Assembly: GCA_043228905.1 (NCBI GenBank)
Contig: JBHGNT010000002.1
Span: 12,834,001 to 12,898,000, forward strand
DNA: 64,000 bases
From: Azolla caroliniana
Taxonomy: Eukaryota > Plantae > Polypodiophyta
Direction: 5' to 3'
Shown one piece after another: positions 10,395 through 64,000 of the stretch. The notes beneath the pieces are model-generated. The model ran no database searches. It was not told the origin of the DNA and worked only from the letters and a program-made list of their open reading frames with translations. The position numbers were made by a program, and so were the translations under genes. Numbering within the stretch: the stretch's first letter is position 1; each line of letters opens with the position of its first letter.

Positions 10395-11859
10395 CTATAT
10401 CTATCTATCTATCTATATATATATCTCTATATCTATATCTATATATAGTGTGTGTGTGTGTGTGTGACATACAGTCCACGTTGACATGGTAACCACCATT
10501 TTTGCCTTTTCCAAAATGCATAAATTCTCTTCATAAAGCGGAGTATGTGACATATTGCCCAAGATGGAGCTTTATCGAATAAATCAGTGTATATGTATAT
10601 TCTCAACATGTAGTAGTCCTACAGTCTACATTACATCAATGCCCACATATATTTATCATCATTATATTATTGTGCCTAGGTTCCCTGCATACATATGATG
10701 TATATGTGATATGGAGGAGGCCTCCTAAATGTAATCACAATAGGTGACATTTGGATTCTACAGCATCACAGGGGGTATGGTGATAGACAGTGAAGACACG
10801 GATGAGCTGTCGGTTCCTGATTGCCGCCAGTGCCAGTGTGGGATGACCACCTCCTCGCAATGTTGCTCATCAGAATCTGACGCCTCCTGCTGTGGATGCT
10901 ATGCATTTGAGAAGATGTCACAGTCGGACCTCCGCAAGGACCCAGAAGATCAGGACAATACAACTAGTAGTTACAGCGGCCACAGCTCCCGCACGAGCGA
11001 TTGGCACGGTCACCTTCTCTTTGAGTTCTTTGAATCATCTCCTCCATATGCCAGGGTTCCCTTTTCAGATAAGGTGCTCTATAGATCTAGAAACTCTGTA
11101 GTACTCTTTGATAGCGTATTGGCTGGCTTCCTCAGTATTCGTGTGGAAGTGGATATTTTTATGATGACTCCTTTGGATGTTGTAGATTTCACAGATCTCA
11201 GCAAATTTCACAGCCTTGAAGACGTTGAGAAGTGTTGACCTTCTTCCTGCAAGTTGGATGTCTATTGCATGGTATGTAGGAAAAAGGAAGGTATTCTTTT
11301 TCTTTCCTCCTTTCTTCCTGATTTGGTTTTGACAATTCTCTCACTCATATTCTCTGGTTTAGGTACCCGATCTATAGGATCCCAATTGGTCCGACGTTGC
11401 GGGATCTTGAGGCCTGCTTTCTCAGCTTCCACAGTTTATCCACGTCATTGCAAGGTTCTCCCTCTCTCTATGCAGCCAGTGTCTGTCGTATTCAATTCTT
11501 CCTGCACCAGTATTCTTGTTCTTCTCGAACTATTGCTACTGGTGCTTCATTTCTGTGCATTGTATGGATATATAGATGGCGAGCCCTGGGGAATCGTGAA
11601 ACCAAGTAGTCGGCCAATACAATGTGCAACCTCGTTAGAACCTGGTTCACAGTGGGAGCATCCAATGATAAAGCTCGAAGCATTTGGTTTGGCGCATTAC
11701 AAACTCCGTGGATCTATCTGGACTTCTGCAGGGAATCTTGAGAGAAGGCATGCAGCATCCATGTATCGATGTGCTGAGTCATGGCTCAAACAACTTCATG
11801 TTGGGCATCCTGACTTTGAATTCTTCCGATCCCATAATCCCTCACCTCAAGCCTCATGA
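9501..11859 (+). CDS. DUF789 family plant protein, 6 coding exons: 9501-9947, 10060-10301, 10764-11073, 11186-11271, 11363-11454, 11576-11859
   Basis: GT-AG introns with consistent phases. Family motifs [101 protein letters not shown]. No stops in the spliced frame. Confidence 0.92.
10338..10465. repeat. Compound microsatellite (CA, TACA, TA, TATC, GT) in DUF789 intron 2
   Basis: Directly visible simple repeats. Confidence 0.9.
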
Positions 11860-54223: not shown

Positions 54224-54959
54224 TGTGTAGAGAATAGCGAGGAATATTGCTCGGCCACAATCGAGTCTTGAATCACTTCGATTAGAATGAAATACAGAGA
54301 TGGGAATAGGAGAGTACGTAGGATGTTTACATGGAAAACCCTAAATGGGAAAAACCACGGGAGCCCACAGACTCCAACTATCACTATATGAGAACAGTAC
54401 AATCAGAGGCTTGGAGGCAACTACCTCGAGCTCTGTATCTTTGCAAGGCGGCGGTTACAACAGAGTATCCCTCTGTATCTCCTCTTTCGCTCTCTCTCTA
54501 TACAACAGCTTTGCACACGCCAAAATATGACAAGATTTGTCCACCCCATAAAGTGATTGCCCTAAGTCATATTTATACTTATACGAACTTAGGGCTATTT
54601 ACAAATATAGCCTCAATAGGCTTACTCAACACATTTACAAGTATGTCTTCTCTTCCGGTTCTCACCGGGTCCATCCATCCGGTTTCCGGATCTCTTCTAG
54701 TTCTCACCGGGCCTATCCGATCTGGTTTCTTGATCTCTTCAGGTTCTCACTAGGCCCTCTTTATTCATAACTGGATCCCATCCGGAGGGACTGATTTCCC
54801 AACAATCTCCCCCTTCACTCCGGCATGGGATGTCTCATCAGCCCGATCCGCTTTCGACAGTGTCGAACTTGTCGGTCGTCGACACCTTGGTCAGCATATC
54901 CGACCCGTTCTCCTCCGTGTGGATCATCGTCAACACGAACTCTTGATCTTCTACTCTCT
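54224..54959 (-). mobile_element. 3' end of a copia element: 3' LTR (about 54224-54804), PPT and RNase H tail
   Basis: LTR minus-strand start TGTTGGGAAATCAGTCCCTCCGGATGGGA resembles 15837/16087; PPT AAGGGGGAGAT; RVEDQEFVLTMIHTEENGSDMLTK cut off at 54959. Confidence 0.88.
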
Positions 54960-55312
54960 GGGTGAAAGCATGCGAGTGGAAACAATTAGCTATGTCCTTG
55001 ACATAGCTAATTAGCTATGCAAAAAGCTACCATTGATAAATAGTCATTTTAGTAAAAAGCCATCATTAATAAATTAAGTATGCAAAAAACTACCATTGAA
55101 AATACTAGAGTGTTTTAATTACATATGTAAATGAGTGCCATAAATGTGCAACATAAATTGATGTGTGCACCATAAATGTGTACCATAAATTATATATCGA
55201 ATTCCTAGGTCCATTATGCATGATCCTTTGCCACATCACGTAGGCCATCTCTAGTTGAGTACTGTGGGTTAGTTGCTACCACTGTTGCTAAACCCTATCG
55301 AGTCCACCTGCC

Positions 55313-56050
55313 GCCACTCTACACTGAGGGGCTGCTACTGTGCGTTCCAAGCATCATCAAAGAGCTGCTCAATCTGACGGGGTTCTCTTCTCTGTGACAC
55401 TCTACACTCAGGGGCCACTATTGTGCATTCCAAGCATCATCAAAGAGCTGTTCAATCTGACGGGGTTCTCTTCTCTGTGCCACTCTACACTCAGGGGCCA
55501 TTACTGTGCGTTCCAAGCATCATCAAAGAGCTGTTCAATCTGAGGGGGTTCTCTTCTCTGTGCCACTCTACACTCAGGGGCCATTACTGTGCGTTCCAAG
55601 CATCATCAAAGAGCTGTTCAATCTGAGGGGGTTCTCTTCTCTGTGCCACTCTACACTCAGGGGCCGCTGCTGTGCGTTCCAAGCATCATCAAAGAGTTGT
55701 TCAATCTGACGGGGTTCTCTTCTCTTTGCCACTCTACACTCAGGGGTTGCTACTGTGCGTTCCAAGCATAATCGAAGAGCTATTCAATCTGAGGGGGTTC
55801 TCTTCTCTTTTCCACTCTCACTCAGGGGCCGCTACTGTGCGTTTCAAGCATCATTGGTAACTGTTCAATCTGACGGGGTTCTCTTCTCTTTTCCACTCTC
55901 ACTCAGGGGCCGCTACTGTGCGTTTCAAGCATCATTGGTAACTGTTCAATCTGACGGGGTTCTCTTCTCTATGCCACTCTATTCTCAAGTGCCTTCTATG
56001 TGCGTTTCAAGCATCATCGGTAACTGTTCAATCTGACGGGGTTCTCTCCT
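55313..56050. repeat. 83/81-bp minisatellite, about 9 copies
   Basis: GCCACTCTACACTCAGGGGCC...CAAGCATCATCAAAGAGCTGTTCAATCTGA.GGGGTTCTCTTCTCT; ORF starts recur every 83 bp (55340-55755). Confidence 0.95.
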
Positions 56051-56382
56051 CCATTGCCATCATTCTATACTCAGTTGCCACTACTGTCCAGTCCCGGATT
56101 GCTTCCACATTTCGATTTGACGGAGTTCACTCATCCAACGGCAACATTCTACACTCAGTTGTTGCCATTGGTCGGTCTTGGATCGCCTCCTCAACTGTTG
56201 GATCCAACAGAGTGAAATCCTCTACTGTTCGGTCTTGGATTGCAATAACTTTTCTGTCTATTGATTATCTTGTGTATTGTTGTGTCTAATCTTGTGTATT
56301 GTGTGGAATATTTTTGTGTATTGTTGTTGCCCATAGCCATCTTTAATACTTGTTTTTTTTTCTGGAAATTTAGGGTTTTAAC

Positions 56383-59300
56383 ATGTCTAGCCAAATGGAA
56401 GGGGAAGAAGGGTGTTTAGAATTACCCCTCAATGATCATAAGGATAGGGATGATGTTATCAGGACACAACAAGCCATACGAAACTATTGGGCAGAAAAAA
56501 AAGGAAACATCGTCAATTGTTGAAGGATACGAAAGCCACACTCAGTAAAGGTAAGGATAGTTTAGATGAGAATGTAAGTAATGCGACTACCATCATAGAG
56601 AGAAAGGTTGTAGACTATTTCAATGTTCAAACCAAGCACATCAGCAATGAAGAAAAGAAGGTAGTACTTTATGGAATATGTAATGATCCATCGATAAAGG
56701 ACTTAGTTGATTGTGATGGTCTTAATGCAAACATATCATCTATTTTAGTAAATAATCTTCGTAATAGTTTCGTATCCATGAGCAGGTCAGAAGATGATCT
56801 TGTCTTAAAAAGGTCTAGTCTAATGATGTTACTTAATAGTGATGTTGACGATATAAACATCAGTGAGCTATCTAAGGTAATTGGTGTTAGTAGAAAAACA
56901 GTGTACAATACAATGAACCGTATAATTTCCTCGGGTGAAGGAACTAGTCTACTAAAGCTAACTACAAGATGTAAGCCAATGACACCCATAACATTTGAAA
57001 TCAAGGATGTAATCACAATGTTTTGGACTAATGAGAGTAGGGTTTCACCCAATAAAAAGGATTTATGCAGGAAACGTGTTGGAAGAAATCAATACGAGGA
57101 GCATCCCATTCATCTTCTTGATGTACCTCAGGTATTTACATTTATCTCAACATTTGTTTTGACTCTACTCGGAAAGTTAATTAGCTCAGTTAGCAGAAAA
57201 GCTAATTAGCTGTACTGCTAGCTAGTTAGCTATCATGGTAGCTAGTTAGCTATTTCGTTATTACCAGCTAATTAGCTACTAGGAAAGCTAATTAGCTACC
57301 ATGATAGCTAATTAGCTACTATGATAGCTACTACATAGGTAACTGGCTACTCTCAATAGCTACTACCATGATAGCTAATTAGTTAGGATAGCTAATTAGC
57401 CACCATTATAGCTAATTAGCTACTAGACCAGCTAATTAGCTACCATGATAGCTAATTAGTTACTAGGACAGCTAATTAGCCACCGTGATAGCTAATTAGC
57501 TACCATGATAGCTAATTAGCTACTATACCAGCTAATTAGCTACCATGATAGCTAATTAGCTACTATACCAGCTAATTAGCTACCATGATAGCTAATTAGT
57601 TACTAGGAAAGCTAATCAGCCACCATTATAGCTAATTAGCTACTAGACTAGCTAATTAGCTACCACGATAGCTAATTAGCTACTAGACCAGCTAATTAGC
57701 TACCATGATAGCTAATTAGTTACTAGGAAAGCTAATTAGCCACCATGATAGCTAATTAGCTAGTAGACAAGCTAATTAGCCACCATGATAGCTAATTAGC
57801 TACTAGGACAACTAATTAGCTACTAGGACAGCTAATTAGCTACCATGATAGCTAATTAGCTACTACGACAGCTAATTAGCTACCATGATAGCTAATTAGC
57901 TACTAGAATAGCTAATTAGCTACTAGAATAGCTAATTAGCTACCATGATAGCTAATTAGCTACTATGACAGCTAATTAGCTACCATGATAGCTAATTAGC
58001 TACTACGACAGCTAATTAGCTACCATGATAGCTAATTAGCTACTAGAATAGCTAATTAGCTACCATGATAGCTAATTAGCTACTACGACAGCTAATTAGC
58101 TACCATGATAGCTAATTAGCTACTAGGACAACCAATTAGCTACTAGGACAGCTAATTAGCTACCATGATAGCTAATTAGCTACTACGACAGCTAATTAGC
58201 TACCATGATAGCTAATTAGCTACTAGAATAGCTAATTAGCTACCATGATAGCTAATTAGCTACTACGACAGCTAATTAACTACCATGATAGCTAATTAGC
58301 TACTAGGACAACTAATTAGCTACCATGATAGCTAATTAGCTACTAGAATAGCTAACTAGCTACTAGAATAGCTAACTAGCTACTAGAATAGCTAATTAGC
58401 TACTAGGATAGTTAGCTAGTTACGAGAATAACTAATTCCCCTTTATTACGCAGGTCGATTTATTTATTAGGTTCAAACGAATGCATCCAACTATCAAAGT
58501 TCAACTACGAACATTCGAGTCTCTTAAGCCACACTTTGTGAGACGCTTAAAGGATCGATACACATGTTGTTGCATTTACCATGTACAGATGGGTTTTCTG
58601 AAGGACTCTGTTAATCTACTACGTCACCATAGCGCATCCCTAACTAATACAGTTTGCACATGTGGGTGCCAAATCTGTCGATCAAGCCCGCAAGAGGAGT
58701 GTAAATCATCTGAGCACGTTATCTCTTCCATGAGTTATTTATTAGATTTAATATTGTGTCCGAGAGAATCTGACGCTATCTTCCATATTCATAAATGTGT
58801 CATGGGTTTATGTCAAGATTGTGGCCCTACTAGATTTAGGTGGTGTCCAAATGAATTGAGTAGTGAAATATTGATCTCTGTGAAGTTATTTGAGTCAGTG
58901 AACACCAATTTCGAAGGAAAGGTGTGTAAAAGAAAGGATCTAGTTCGGAAGATGCTTAAACCAAGGGATTTGGTGTCTCTGTTTGTAGTATCTCTAGGAA
59001 AGTTCATTAAACACAACTTCATTTATTCATGGCAGGCCCATCAGTTTAAGACTTGCATATCTGATTTCCCAAATGATGTAGTAGTCTCAGTAGTAGATTT
59101 CGCAGAGAATTATACTTTCAAGCAGCAGAATGAAATTCAATCTATGCATTGGTGTTCAGTTCAGGTAACCATTTTTGTGCACATAACATATTTTCGAGTT
59201 TCAGGTGATGTTAAAAAAGTAATTCATTTCTTTATTTCCGATGATAAGAAGCATGATACCTTGTTCGTCCAACACTGTTTTAAGTTACATTGGCAGTGGT

Positions 59301-60295
59301 TATTAGCTCAACGTTTGGAGCTTACTCAACATTGGGTCTGGTCTGACGGAGCTGCGTCACAATTCAAGGCTCGACATCCATTTTATTTTGTGGGGAGGTA
59401 TCCTGCTATAACAGGTTTGGAGATGAGATGGAATTTTTTTGGGTCTGGCCATGGTAAAGGTGAACATGATGGTGCAGGGGCTGTTATAAAGCGGGCACTT
59501 ACCCATGAACAACTAAAGACAGATGGTGTGCACATGAATTGTGCATCACATGTAGTTGAATTTTTAAGAACAAATATGTCGACGAGTGCCACAGGTGTTT
59601 ATTCCTCGCAAGTTCGAGATATCAAACGTGAATTTTGGGAAGTGAAGATAGATGAAGTAAATAGGGAGAAGACCTGGGAGTGCCAAGGAATTCCCGAATT
59701 GCGATCTCTGCATGCTGTTCGCGGTTATTCCAGGTTGGATGGTCATTGTATTGCGGTGAGAGAATTGACTTGTTTTTGCTTCCATTGTGTGTAGGGAAAT
59801 TGGAGATATTGTCTAAACAAAGCATACATTCAGAATTGGGAGTATCACACTCTGAATGATAAGGAAGCAGTTGATGGAGAAACAGGGCAGAATGCTGACT
59901 TCACATATGAGGGACTTGGAGATACTTTGAGTGATGTCCTGAACGTTGGGGATAACTTCGCTGTAAATGCTGAAGAAGGCAATTCAGAGGGTGCTGATTT
60001 CTATATATTAAAGTGCACGGTTAGTAAACAGTGTGCAAGGCAGAATATTGTAGATGCATGGGGAAATTTTGTATCTGCCGGGACATTCTACATCGAAGGC
60101 ATTTTTTATGCAAAACTAGATGACTACGAATATGTGTACAGGCTGTTAGAAGACAAACCAGCAGCGTATATGTACTCTCATTTGGTCAGATGCATCAACG
60201 TCCCAATGTCAGAATACAATAGCTGCTCCGGTTTATACACTGTTGGTGCTAATGTGTATGAATGTATTTACAATAGTATGCCATGGAATTTGTAG
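56383..60295 (+). pseudogene. Sola2-type DDD transposase; exons 56383-57131 and 58454-60295; one frameshift (A run near 56495-56502) and one TAG (59792-59794)
   Basis: Phase-0 GT-AG intron 57132-58453 joins HLLDVPQ|VDLFIRFKRMHP. Motifs TCCCIYH, VDFAENY..QNEIQSMHW, FISDDKKHD, WSDGAASQFK, WNFFGSGHGKGEHDGAGAVIKR, CFCFHC...C. ORF 59927-60295 is in the same frame. Confidence 0.85.
57200..58435. repeat. 20-bp palindromic satellite (TAGCTAATTAGCTA core) with 40-bp dimeric higher-order structure, inside the transposase intron
   Basis: GCTAATTAGCTACCATGATA alternates with GCTAATTAGCTACTA(G/C/T)NNNA at an exact 20-bp period. Confidence 0.97.
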
Positions 60296-60730
60296 CTACA
60301 AGTAGCACTTACCATGTTCTCTTGTAAAACAAACATGTATTTCGCGAAAACAGATCAATAAATTCGTTTGGAATCAATTTCTTGTATACAGTCTGCTTTC
60401 TGTGCTTCTTTCTCAATAAAATCATGTCTTTTTTGTTAAGTTTTAAGTTATAAGTTATAGCGAAATAGTCATCAGTAGCTAATTAGCTGTACAAATGTAT
60501 TTACAATAGTATGCCATGGAATTTGTAGCTACAAGTAGCACTTACCATGTTCTCTTGTAAAACAAACATGTATTTCGCGAAAACAGATCAATAAATTCGT
60601 TTGGAATCAATTTCTTGTATACAGTCTGCTTTCTGTGCTTCTTTCTCAATAAAATCATGTCTTTTTTGTTAAGTTTTAAGTTATAAGTTATAGCGAAATA
60701 GTCATCAGTAGCTAATTAGCTGTACAAATG
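60261..60730. repeat. 233-bp tandem duplication of the transposase stop and 3' UTR
   Basis: AATGTATTTACAATAGTATGCCATGG at 60261 and 60494; copies look identical by eye. Confidence 0.93.
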
Positions 60731-60897
60731 CAGCTAATTAGCTGTACAAATGTAGCTAATTAGCTGTCAATAGCTAAATAGTCATCAATAGAATGAAATC
60801 AACAATCTGCAACATATTCCTCAAATTACATAGTAGATAAGTACAGTGGGAACAAGTAATTAAATTCTTCATTGAATAATGTCATCTCTTTACATAT

Positions 60898-62776
60898 TTA
60901 TAAATTACCATTGGAAATGTCTACAAATCTCCTATAAACAGCTAAGCTCTTGCTAGTCAGTGGAACGAGTCTACATATATTATCCGCATATTGAGCTCGG
61001 TATGGAGTCCACAACCATGCACCTAGTTGGCAGCTCACTGTTTGCACCAGGTACTGTTCAGGCATTTCCTCGGGTAGAATGAGACAGCATCTCCGAATAT
61101 TGAAGTAGTGTCGGAAATGTTCTGTATCCAAAATCAATGTATTGTCAGCATTATATTCAGGCCAAGTAGCCCAAAAATCAGAAAGCCTCTTGAATCTTGC
61201 AGCTTCCATCTGCTCACAATTTTCTCGTGCCCATTGACCTTTAAAACGACTTCGCCATTTTGGGAAGAATCTTGCCAAACACTTCCACACATCTGATTTT
61301 GGTTTCTCACTCCAAATAAACAAATCGAAGTACTCCGCAGCCCACTCTAGAAACTGATTTGCGTCCCTCCTTGGCTGCATATATCTCACACTCATCAAGA
61401 CTTTATCCAGCTCCAAGATCAAGGCTCTTCGCTCGACTTCTAGTGGTTTAGGTTTCCATTCCTGAAACTGAGCCGCTGTTACACCATTTTCTGGTAGGAT
61501 ACGATCAATCTCAATCAGCTCAGGTTCGGCTGACACAACTGGTGTCCTTTTCCTCTTTAAACCCCTAGTCGACTGTGTTGGGCCTAGCTTCACATTCTGG
61601 TGCTCTTGTTTTGTCGACTTAGTTATCAATCCTTGGATTACCTCAGTGCATGTAGCTACTGTTCTGCTCGATATCAATCCACTGGTATCACATGCTGCAT
61701 CTACCTGCAACACCAAGTCATCCGTGCTACATGCTGCATCTACCTGCAACACCAAGTCATCTGTGCTACATGCTGCATCTACCTGCAACACCAAGTCATC
61801 CGTGCTACATGCTGCATCTACCTGCAACACCAAGTCATCCGTGCTACATGCTTGATCAACTTGTGTGACCAGATCACTTGTGTCAGTTGCTACATCTACT
61901 TTCAAGATGGGGCCCTTTAAACATGCCGCAACATCAACAGTATCCACACTGCCATTGGCCTTACGAGCAATAGAATCAAACCCTTTAGACTCTGCAACAT
62001 CAGAAAACACCAACATATTCACACTCACAAAGTAACTACTAGTCTCACAAAACAATATCCTGAACATCAAAGAGTTTCAGTCATAGAACAACACTCTTCA
62101 AATTATCTTGGAAAAACATCATAGAGTTCCATTACATAATGTGGATCAAGCAACAACCAATCTGAGGTTTTACTTGTCCAACAGGATAGTAAAACTTCAT
62201 AAAACCCTAGCAAAATCCCTAAGCTAACAATCATATCCAACTAAACAGTATTTCGCTCCACTACGTCTGGGCCCCTTGACCGAGTAACTGGTCTTGTTCC
62301 CGATCGTGGCCCCTTCTTCAGCCTTTTTCTGGTTGGTTCCCCATTTAGCCTTGCTTCTAGGACCCAATGCGCAAGTGTGTCCTCCTCCGACAACCTTCCC
62401 ATCGCCTCAGCAGCTAATTGCACATCAGCCGTTTCTTGAACTAGCTTTTCAAGTACAGAGGGATCTGTTTGGACATTTTCAGTAGTTGGGCTCGGTGGGG
62501 TGGAATCAAGGTCTTGAGACTCGAAGAAATGTTGCATCAAGTGTTCATAAACACTGTTGTTGTGAACCTCAGTTTTACATGTTGTTTCCACTATTTCATG
62601 GCATTTCACATCGTTGCCTAATTCAGTACACTGTTCCAAAAGAATAGGGTGCAGCTGATCTGAAGGAGATGTGATAGCAGGACTCTTACTTTCAGCCACA
62701 TTGGCAGTAGTATCCTCATCTGTTGCAGCATCATCAGCACCAGACACATCATGTGCCGTCCTTAATCCACAAGATT
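60898..62776 (-). CDS. Multi-exon gene with C-terminal FCP1/NIF (HAD-fold CTD phosphatase-like) domain lacking DxDxT; 5' exons outside window
   Basis: RRALILELDKVL..RRDANQFLEWAAEYFDLFIWS..FKRLSDFW..YNADNTLILDT resembles the NIF/UBLCP1 layout. Candidate acceptors at 62777 and 61992; the donor between the two ORFs is not resolved. Confidence 0.6.
61691..61850 (-). repeat. 39-bp coding tandem repeat (13-aa unit TDDLVLQVDAACS, 4 copies plus degenerate ones)
   Basis: CATGCTGCATCTACCTGCAACACCAAGTCATCCGTGCTA repeated in frame. Confidence 0.92.
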
Positions 62777-62799
62777 CTACAATAACATGACAGTTATTT

Positions 62800-64000
62800 A
62801 GGATAGCTAATTAGCTACTTTACTAAACTATGGTAGAAGCTAGGATAGCTAATTAGCTAGTACGATAGCTAATTAGCTAGTATGATAGCTAATTAGGTAC
62901 TTTACTCAACTATGGTAGTAGTTAGGATAGCTAATTAGGTACTTTACTCAACTATGGTAGTAGTTAGGATAGCTTATTAGCTACTAGGACAGCTAATTAG
63001 CTGCCAGTAGCTAATTAGCTACTAGGATAGCTAATTAATTAGCTACCAGTAGCTAATTAGCTACTAGGATAGCTAATTAGCTGCCAGTAGCTAATTAGCT
63101 ACTAGGATAGCTTATTAGCTACTTTACACAACTATGGCAGTAGCTACTAGGATAGCTAATTCGCTAGTAGGATAGCTAATTAGTTTCCAGCAGCTAATTA
63201 GCTACTAGGATAGCTAATTAGCTAGTAGGATAGCTAATTAGGTACTTTACTCAACTATGGTAGTAGCTAATTAGCTAGTAGGATAGCTAATTAGCTACTT
63301 TACTCAACTATGGTAGTAGCTAATTAGCTACTAGGATAGCTTATTAGCTACTTTACACAACTATGGCAGTAGCTAATTAGTTACTAGGATAGCTAATTAG
63401 TTACTAGGATAGCTAATTAGCTACTATGGTAGCTAATTAGCTACTTTACTCAACTATGGTAGTAGCTAGGATAGCTAATTAGCTACTTTACTAACTATGG
63501 TAGTAGCTAGGATAGCTAATTAGCTACTTTATTAACTATGGTGGTAGCTAGGATAGCTAATTAGCTACAATGAAAGCTAATTAGCTACTTTCTCAACTAT
63601 GTAGTAGCTAGGATAGCTTATTAGCTACTAGGACAGCTAATTAGCTGCCAGTAGCTAATTAGCTACTTTACACAACTATGTCAGTAGCTAATTAGCTACT
63701 ATGATAGCTAATTAGCTAGTAGGATAGCTAATTAGCTAGTAGGATAGCTAATTAGTTGTCAGTAGCTAATTAGCTAGTAGGATAGCTAATTAGCTTTTTT
63801 ACACAACTATGGTACTAGCTAATTAGCTAGTACCATAGCTAACTAGCTACTAGGATAACTTATTAGCTACTTTACACAACTATGTCAGTAGCTAATTAGC
63901 TACTATGATAGCTAATTAGCTAGTAGGATAGCTAATTAGTTGCCAGTAGCTAATTAGCTAGTAGGATAGCTAATTAGCTATTTTACACAACTATGGTACT
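62800..64000. repeat. Second TAGCTAATTAGCTA satellite array with mixed ~17/20/32-bp units, running off the window
   Basis: Same palindromic core with linkers CTAGGA, CCAG and CTTTACTCAACTATGGTAG. Confidence 0.96.

Follow-up and report, generated by a model that had tools for sequence, protein, structure and literature searches.

We analysed a 64,000-nucleotide stretch of the Azolla caroliniana genome (the window; assembly GCA_043228905.1, contig JBHGNT010000002.1, positions 12,834,001 to 12,898,000 of the forward strand), which ends within a Sola2-type DNA transposon. The element contains three open reading frames (ORFs), a transposase and, facing it on the opposite strand, two passengers that we call gene B and ORF C, as well as arrays of a short palindrome, AGCTAATTAGCT. 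It is 11,882 bp long, starts at 54,960 and extends 2.8 kb beyond the window's last base; its right end was found in the neighbouring stretch at 66,841 (G000:C2:12,900,841). Positions above 64,000 are given throughout as window-equivalent, the G000:C2 coordinate being the window coordinate plus 12,834,000. DDD transposases cut at terminal inverted repeats (TIRs) and duplicate 4 bp upon insertion. Here the TIRs are 25 bp long at both ends, with one mismatch between them, and outside the right TIR stands CTCT, after which the interrupted retroelement resumes. The host of the insertion is a copia-like element, around which CTCT is duplicated, and in all 11 other copies of this copia-like element that we examined the flanks are contiguous with a single CTCT, as empty sites. 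A first-pass annotation, made from the letters of the window, had placed the left end at 54959/54960, with GGG after CTCT, in an element of more than 9 kb inserted in copia sequence, and had proposed looking downstream for an inverted terminus, CTCT and resumed copia sequence. The boundary held, and all three downstream features were found, from 66,817 onward.

The window copy belongs to a transposon that multiplied recently and has many near-identical copies. The first 341 bases from 54,960 were matched with 100% identity at 40 of 40 scored places among 666 candidates, and candidate loci numbered 636 for the right end, 518 for the transposase core and 474 for ORF C; these candidate numbers (about 500-650) are not copy numbers. 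We fetched 30 other loci, which as best matches are skewed toward young copies, and all 30 start at the same base as the window copy, in unrelated flanks. Both ends were present in 27 of them (lengths 10,252-13,846 bp), the other three showing no right end inside 15.7 kb. Every complete copy carries a target-site duplication (TSD), exactly 4 bp in 26 cases and 8 bp within a CT run in one, and the AT content of the duplications is 81%, against 56% in the flanks. ORF C and the last two exons of gene B are likewise present in 27/27 complete copies, the passenger region being fixed in the family. Among the 30 copies the transposase frame is open in 14, B in 19, C in 23 and all three in 6. Since the copies diverge from the family majority by 0.3-0.5%, we conclude that they stem from a recent burst, and the family recently occupied on the order of 1% of the host genome (an estimate from about 500 candidates of 12 kb in 523 Mb). 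Differences among the copies number 313, and 205 are of the C-to-T type (114 CHG, 48 CG and 43 CHH); in exon 2 of the transposase, CHH sites greatly exceed those of other contexts. From this bias to CHG and CG we infer that the host likely methylates copies of the element in those two contexts.

Table 1. Features of the Sola2-type element in window and window-equivalent coordinates.
Feature	Position	Strand	Remarks
Left TSD, CTCT	54,956-54,959	.	From flanks and empty sites in copia-like copies
Left TIR, 25 bp, begins GGG	54,960-54,984	+	One mismatch to the right TIR
Subterminal AGCTAATTAGCT copy and half sites	54,985-55,100	.	Motif search
Tandem repeats of 81-83 bp, upstream of transposase	55,313-56,193	+	Copy number differs between element copies
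Transposase exon 1, helix-turn-helix (HTH)-like region	56,383-57,131	+	Window copy: A run near 56,494 short by 1 base
Transposase intron, GT-AG	57,132-58,453	+	Holds 57 palindromes, most at 20-bp intervals; length 827-1,616 bp across copies
Transposase exon 2: Cys-rich region, RNase H-like core, C-terminal beta domain	58,454-60,295	+	TAG at 59,792 in window copy
Spacer between facing 3' ends	60,296-60,897	.	233-bp duplication and 4 palindromes
ORF C, single exon	60,898-62,067	-	389 aa from first ATG; 372 from conserved ATG at 62,016
Gene B last exon (predicted)	62,241-62,776	-	Acidic region, basic tail ending TRSR...stop
Gene B last intron	62,777-64,507	-	66 palindromes
Gene B exon 5	64,841-64,508	-	End of coiled coil, RING-H2-like finger
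Gene B exon 4	65,069-64,926	-	
Gene B exon 3	65,829-65,148	-	Unnamed folded domain
Gene B exon 2	66,390-66,334	-	
Gene B exon 1	66,590-66,487	-	
Two palindromes between gene B exon 1 and right TIR			Beyond window
Right TIR	66,817-66,841		Beyond window
Right TSD, CTCT	66,842-66,845		Beyond window

Two further observations concern the copies. Between loci L206-L215 and the main family, synonymous divergence (dS) is 0.10-0.115 in ORF C and 0.02-0.03 in the transposase, and in older copies B and C diverge more than the transposase; the higher dS of ORF C suggests an exchange of arms between subfamilies. Beside one older element copy, a copia-like ORF (L237, about G000:C1:10,943,351-10,947,140) is duplicated in inverted orientation, with identical 40-base arms.

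The transposase comprises 864 aa from two exons and carries its triad (D465/D548/D589) in the motifs VDFAENY / WSDGAASQFK / HGKGEHDG, which, like the intron, the first-pass annotation had already recognized. In the window copy it is broken by the two lesions listed in Table 1, while B and C are open; such a copy can be moved only in trans. Pfam gave HTH-like matches under the cut-off in exon 1 and no family for the core, and the structural neighbours of the model (predicted local confidence, pLDDT, 83) were RNase H-like integrases, nucleases and transposases with weak E-values. The C-terminal beta-rich domain (window 59,900-60,295) is confidently folded in the model, and Pfam gave nothing above noise for it. 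A near-perfect 233-bp duplication (window 60,255-60,720) spans the transposase stop and the 3' region. Sola2 TIRs begin 5'-GRG; the GGG start of the 25-bp TIR agrees with this, and the sister family at metagenome locus L125 apparently begins GGG too (one end seen). The triad spacing is 82 and 40, against 83 and 40 in Sola2-1_HM by hand count, and all six motif patterns from the published Sola2 alignment (PMC3627910 Additional file 10) match the transposase. The likeness to the Sola2 group covers the triad motifs DF[AS]EN[YF] / [ST]DG...Q[FY]K / HGK...DG.G...K, the upstream CxCxxH and Cys cluster, the short TIRs and the 4-bp AT-rich TSD.

A search for relatives of the transposase found 127, of which 120 were listed; nine were omitted for a core too short or too long, and the tree was built from 111 plus the element, its rows being unnamed and NCBI-named homologs only, without Repbase references. 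The element fell inside an 85-row clade (99/96) with Calypogeia, Ceratodon, Cryptomeria, Taxus and Klebsormidium, and two animal-named rows lay elsewhere. Judged by this tree, the transposase belongs to a streptophyte-wide clade. Because Repbase references were absent from it, the choice of Sola2 over Sola1 or Sola3 rests on motifs, spacing and TSD, all of which fit the Sola2 type. We regard the structure of the element together with its Sola2-type assignment as nearly certain. The first-pass annotation had reached the same assignment, and what it had named as fatal to it (a missing downstream TIR and TSD, a single-copy second gene in relatives lacking the transposase, a transposase grouping outside Sola2) was not encountered wherever it could be looked for.

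Gene B runs on the minus strand from 66,590 to 62,241 in six predicted exons and encodes 618 aa: a folded domain at the N-terminus is followed by a coiled coil, then by a RING-H2-like finger and an acidic tail that has TRSR close to its end. Its first three introns are crossed at the modelled sites by a 1,252-base contig of run X1 (about 95% alike in the longest piece), two junctions being listed with CT..AC ends and the third lying within one base of the model; the run is from a relative, and its RNA origin is a guess. In this run no contig spans the transposase intron, either of the last two B introns, which are predicted only, or the step from B to C. The N-domain model has a pLDDT of 94. 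Pfam holds no family for this domain, an Atlas lead (PF04195 at 0.88) lay below the trust level, and an Atlas search with exon 3 gave mainly unnamed clusters. Foldseek with the model returned 0 matches at E <=0.001 in the PDB and 0 in viral models; VIA-align against 48,161 chains reached a best Z of 2.4 (root-mean-square deviation 3.9, 78 aligned), in rows that do not include VANC21 (9LNK); a PDB sequence search with the B alignment gave coiled coils only, among the matches listed; and a word-based search for longer B relatives found 0 among 1,335 candidates. Fold searches without a clear match do not show that the B fold is new. The RING-H2-like pattern, with a final pair C-x3-C, was read by eye; Pfam RING matches in B (E 0.11-0.42) and in the B relative P0217 (E 8e-4) fell below the cut-off. 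The second intron of B (65,830-66,333; L031:2830-3333) contains a degenerate repeat with nine AAACCCTA/TAGGGTTT words, which we take to be telo-box-like.

ORF C contains in-frame 39-bp repeats, followed by a NIF/FCP1-like HAD domain. Pfam NIF (PF03031) matched the ORF at 60,901-62,076 with E 1.2e-7 (32 bits against a cut-off of 21.8), and a relative at metagenome locus L127 with 55 bits; the L127 NIF ORF had no match at E 0.01 in a PDB sequence search. The catalytic motif of FCP1/SCP phosphatases is DxDx(T/V). ORF C has ELDKV at this position, and L127 and two Adiantum proteins have DLNG; because the motif is replaced in this way, the product is predicted to be phosphatase-like and likely inactive. 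It shares the Pfam match with the FCP1/SCP HAD phosphatases and keeps the hydrophobic-D/E-L, W-S and N-T-L blocks, but differs from them in its degenerate catalytic motif. The 39-bp repeat (window 61,651-61,866) varies among copies, which encode 350-389 aa in 13-aa steps with the frame kept. A complex prediction for the B N-domain and the C NIF part, run without alignments, gave no usable answer (score 0.00). Where the first-pass annotation had seen one convergent FCP1/NIF-like cargo gene, the facing layout and the NIF match are correct; however, there are two passenger ORFs, three ORFs in all, and the larger one, B, is not FCP1-like.

We considered whether B and C are exons of one gene of about 990 aa, since an in-frame donor/acceptor pair was read by eye in the window copy and four Adiantum predictions fuse both parts. 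However, two diverged copies lack both splice sites, and in them B stops right after TRSR/TRRR; L127 likewise has a stop after TRSR. Moreover, the linkers of P0177 and P0214 resemble non-coding sequence, and the first 58 codons of ORF C are without protein constraint (ratio of nonsynonymous to synonymous rates, dN/dS, 0.6-2.3). A single gene is thus quite improbable and, given the loss of the putative splice sites in the two diverged copies, we take B and C with good confidence to be separate genes.

Selection on the passengers was measured against three diverged genomic copies; in closer copies B has too few changes for a clear dN/dS answer. The ratio is 0.25-0.31 in transposase exon 2, 0.15-0.19 in the B N-domain (p ~1e-9) and 0.25-0.36 in the NIF part of C (p <1e-4). 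The RING exon of B gave 0.35 and 0.58 (0.23 counting shared changes), and its last exon is weakly constrained (0.56-0.68). B and C are kept under purifying selection, and it is highly probable that both are functional. Ten further diverged loci were chosen for the similarity of their C; in every one of them C is accompanied by transposase and B sequence, and six have both ends. The proposal that B and C represent pieces of host sequence captured as neutral Pack-type cargo is in keeping with the patchy occurrence of C across families and with the weak constraint on the last B exon, but it is largely refuted by the strong purifying selection on the B N-domain and the NIF part. The recurrence of the pair at about 30% identity in L127 and Adiantum, and its constant company in the ten diverged loci, also speak against it, and we consider it extremely improbable.

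The B domain has 141 relatives at E <=0.001. Organism names were attached to 10 of the 16 that we looked up, all of them Adiantum. Fifteen were inspected, and NIF sequence stood behind the domain in four and a RING pattern in four; Pfam confirmed NIF in two of the four Adiantum predictions with NIF behind the B domain. The B and C pair, as known from protein predictions, recurs in Adiantum ferns. Among 80 metagenome loci with a related transposase, NIF lies next to one, L127, whose transposase is 49% and C 30% identical in the same facing layout; the gap in L125 (transposase 60% identical) contains no NIF. Of 32 clusters with >=1.5 kb downstream, 6 have a facing ORF that is acidic and has a basic tail, and the controls, three other strand/side combinations differing in length, yielded 0. 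L132 contains a B N-domain (hhalign 91.6%, E 8e-7; ORF chosen by eye out of 495), L182 gave a weak N-domain match (hhalign 69.6%), and L176 and L189 gave weak RING matches. The B-domain hidden Markov model run over the 80 loci found nothing significant (best E 0.079), L132 being linked by profile comparison only, and BLASTP of B exon 3 against L132 was not significant. A TIR search in the metagenome loci produced no credible pair, and searches of the Azolla genome itself with the distant proteins returned overwhelmingly this element family. The scattered B-like facing genes and rare NIF neighbours lead us to conclude that the facing B-like gene is likely an old feature of the plant clade, with C as an optional one. 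Accordingly, the earlier idea of a plant lineage stably carrying a NIF gene applies to this family and some fern relatives, but not to the related loci at large. Facing ORFs with an 'NWA.F' block resembling the B domain also occur at the distant Sola2 loci L132:7029-8732, L170:18008-18490 and L182:18074-18595 (transposase 32-40%), and a gene with a B3 DNA-binding domain (L185:14360-16224 and L187:11895-13759, minus strand) follows a related transposase downstream.

The palindrome AGCTAATTAGCT, allowing <=1 mismatch, occurs 130 times inside the element, 0 times in the 54,959 bases before it and 0 times in the 26 kb after it. Two introns hold 123 copies, the spacer four and the ends three, at 25-60 bp inside both. 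The first-pass annotation had placed the motif at the terminus, in both genes and between them, which is right for ends, spacer and introns; the motif is never in coding exons and not in ORF C. Its 12-bp core is kept while the repeat unit shifts: most units measure 20 bp in this element, against 19 or 33 bp in older copies. In several related families the transposase intron or spacer contains different tandem motifs, other families have none, and in L125 the intron motif recurs just inside the GGG end. A genome-wide search with a paired-site pattern gave 9,747 hits and its control 0. One of three outlying clusters that were checked proved to be both long terminal repeats (LTRs) of an unrelated copia element (L238:7622-8170 and a partner LTR about 5 kb on, G000:C1:10,404,622 and 10,409,676). 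In this copia family 40 of 40 scored LTR matches are 86-100% alike, and all ten LTRs examined (L242-L251) carry 5-7 AGCTAATTAGCT palindromes at 18-bp spacing. The motif therefore does not by itself tie the Sola2-type element into one unit, as had been proposed, and its use as a marker is weakened.

The presence of AGCTAATTAGCT in copia LTRs leaves two readings, a site of a host factor or hitch-hiking on B. The TAATTA core resembles a homeodomain site. Under the former reading, the palindrome would be a homeodomain-type host transcription factor site that this Sola2 family and a copia family multiplied for expression, and B and C would help otherwise, for example as an E3 ligase and adaptor acting against a host defence protein. 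The same 12-bp core in every LTR examined of an unrelated family agrees with this, as does the RING-like finger of B, whose DNA binding remains predicted. However, the differing tandem motifs of related Sola2 families at the same intron fit co-evolution with a protein of the element better than a single unchanging host factor, and the 81 kb of flanking DNA contain no motif. We consider the host-factor site somewhat unlikely.

Our tentative preference is for a VANC-like anti-silencing function of passengers B and C, of the kind known from VANDAL transposons. It is favoured by the combination of a globular-plus-coiled-coil accessory protein, non-coding arrays, a methylating host and an unrelated transposable element sharing the motif. 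Cut-and-paste movement by the transposase follows from what is known of its family. B would be a sequence-specific DNA-binding chromatin regulator that binds AGCTAATTAGCT as an oligomer via its coiled coil, and its RING would attach ubiquitin to a silencing or chromatin factor of the host, while C would bind a phosphoprotein without removing the phosphate. Together, B and C would act on the palindrome arrays and keep the element transcribed despite host methylation. Several observations weigh against this proposal. The transposase has an HTH-like region of its own, and the motif sits just inside both TIRs, like a transposase or cofactor site. The TAATTA core in copia LTRs would be just as well explained by a host factor. 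Sister families can do without C, NIF being found at 1/80 related loci and absent in L125, and B-like signals lie beside about one third of related transposases (the 6/32 clusters plus, by weaker tests, L132, L182, L176 and L189). In addition, the CHG-biased decay shows that inserted copies do become methylated, and B resembles VANC by architecture, not by established homology, its binding to the motif being a prediction.

The position of the motif near the ends also bears on a further possibility. The second protein of Harbinger and TnpA of CACTA are precedents for transposition cofactors, and B could be a required cofactor that recruits the transposase to the short TIRs while bound to the subterminal palindromes, with intron arrays grown by slippage and C optional. 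Consistent with such a role, the motifs lie inside both ends, as also in L125, facing B-like genes occur across the plant clade, and the B N-domain is as constrained as the transposase. However, 123/130 motifs are in introns, distant from the ends, a cut-and-paste helper would be of no use to copia LTRs, and the part of PMC3627910 available to us mentions no such partner for Sola2. We regard a cofactor role as decidedly unlikely.

Outside the element, the window contains the exons of a DUF789 host gene, a family of plant range, at 10,744-11,856, and is otherwise made up mainly of nested gypsy-, copia- and LINE-like remains.

A transposable element-related domain paired with a phosphatase-like partner is known from MAIN/MAIL1 with PP7L, in which the partner is inactive and belongs to another phosphatase family. 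Compared with Sola2 as published, the Azolla element differs in its streptophyte clade, its length of 11.9 kb, its two facing passenger ORFs and its intronic palindrome arrays. The Sola2-Fanzor1 chimeras of Dictyostelium fasciculatum and Polysphondylium pallidum (PMC3627910) likewise combine a Sola2 transposase, a passenger in the 3' part and a 4-bp TSD; however, their passenger is Fanzor and varies among families, in contrast to the unnamed-domain/RING-like and NIF-like proteins found here. Sola1-1_Ec32 of Ectocarpus (PMC12477816) is also a large Sola with an opposite-strand accessory gene proposed to act on its own DNA, but it is a Sola1 whose protein is ParB-like plus amino-methyltransferase, without RING or NIF. 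VANDAL/VANC (PMC5735166, PMC13547354) shares with the Azolla element a plant DNA transposon, an accessory protein with globular domain and coiled coil and family-specific non-coding motif arrays; moreover, the array in copia LTRs parallels the unrelated AT9TSD1, which bears VANC6 motifs (PMC5735166). VANDAL elements differ in their MULE transposase; VANC carries DUF1985/DUF287, is described as dicot-specific and has an action shown by experiment, and B has a RING-like finger. Sola has been reported in Physcomitrella (PMC10741241), as Sola1 (PMC9033089), in Cupressus Sola2 outnumbers all other DNA transposons (preprint 10.64898/2026.07.23.736688), and Azolla has many SOLA elements (PMC6786969). 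The first-pass view of Sola2 as single-gene elements mainly of animals and protists does not hold as stated, in view of the Fanzor1 chimeras, Cupressus Sola2 and the accessory gene of a Sola1. Both Sola2 in plants and passengers in Sola were already known; the three-ORF cassette with B and C was not found in the literature searched, which describes no Sola2 with a RING or NIF passenger and does not extend to Repbase Reports.

Whatever the function of the passengers, the element provides the first worked-out anatomy of a plant Sola2 in the literature searched, an unnamed, well-folded protein family and a motif array common to two unrelated transposons. An independently evolved, second anti-silencing system in seed-free plants, in which a Sola2-encoded protein with an unnamed DNA-binding fold and a RING, aided by a pseudo-phosphatase, would read the palindrome array and a copia family would have copied that array into its LTRs for protection, is an unlikely extension. 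If the VANC-like proposal is true, the short defined target and several intact young copies would lend themselves to testing and might offer a tool for targeted chromatin change. If B is indeed a sequence-specific anti-silencing factor, the element would extend the VANC-like solution beyond Mutator elements and beyond flowering plants.

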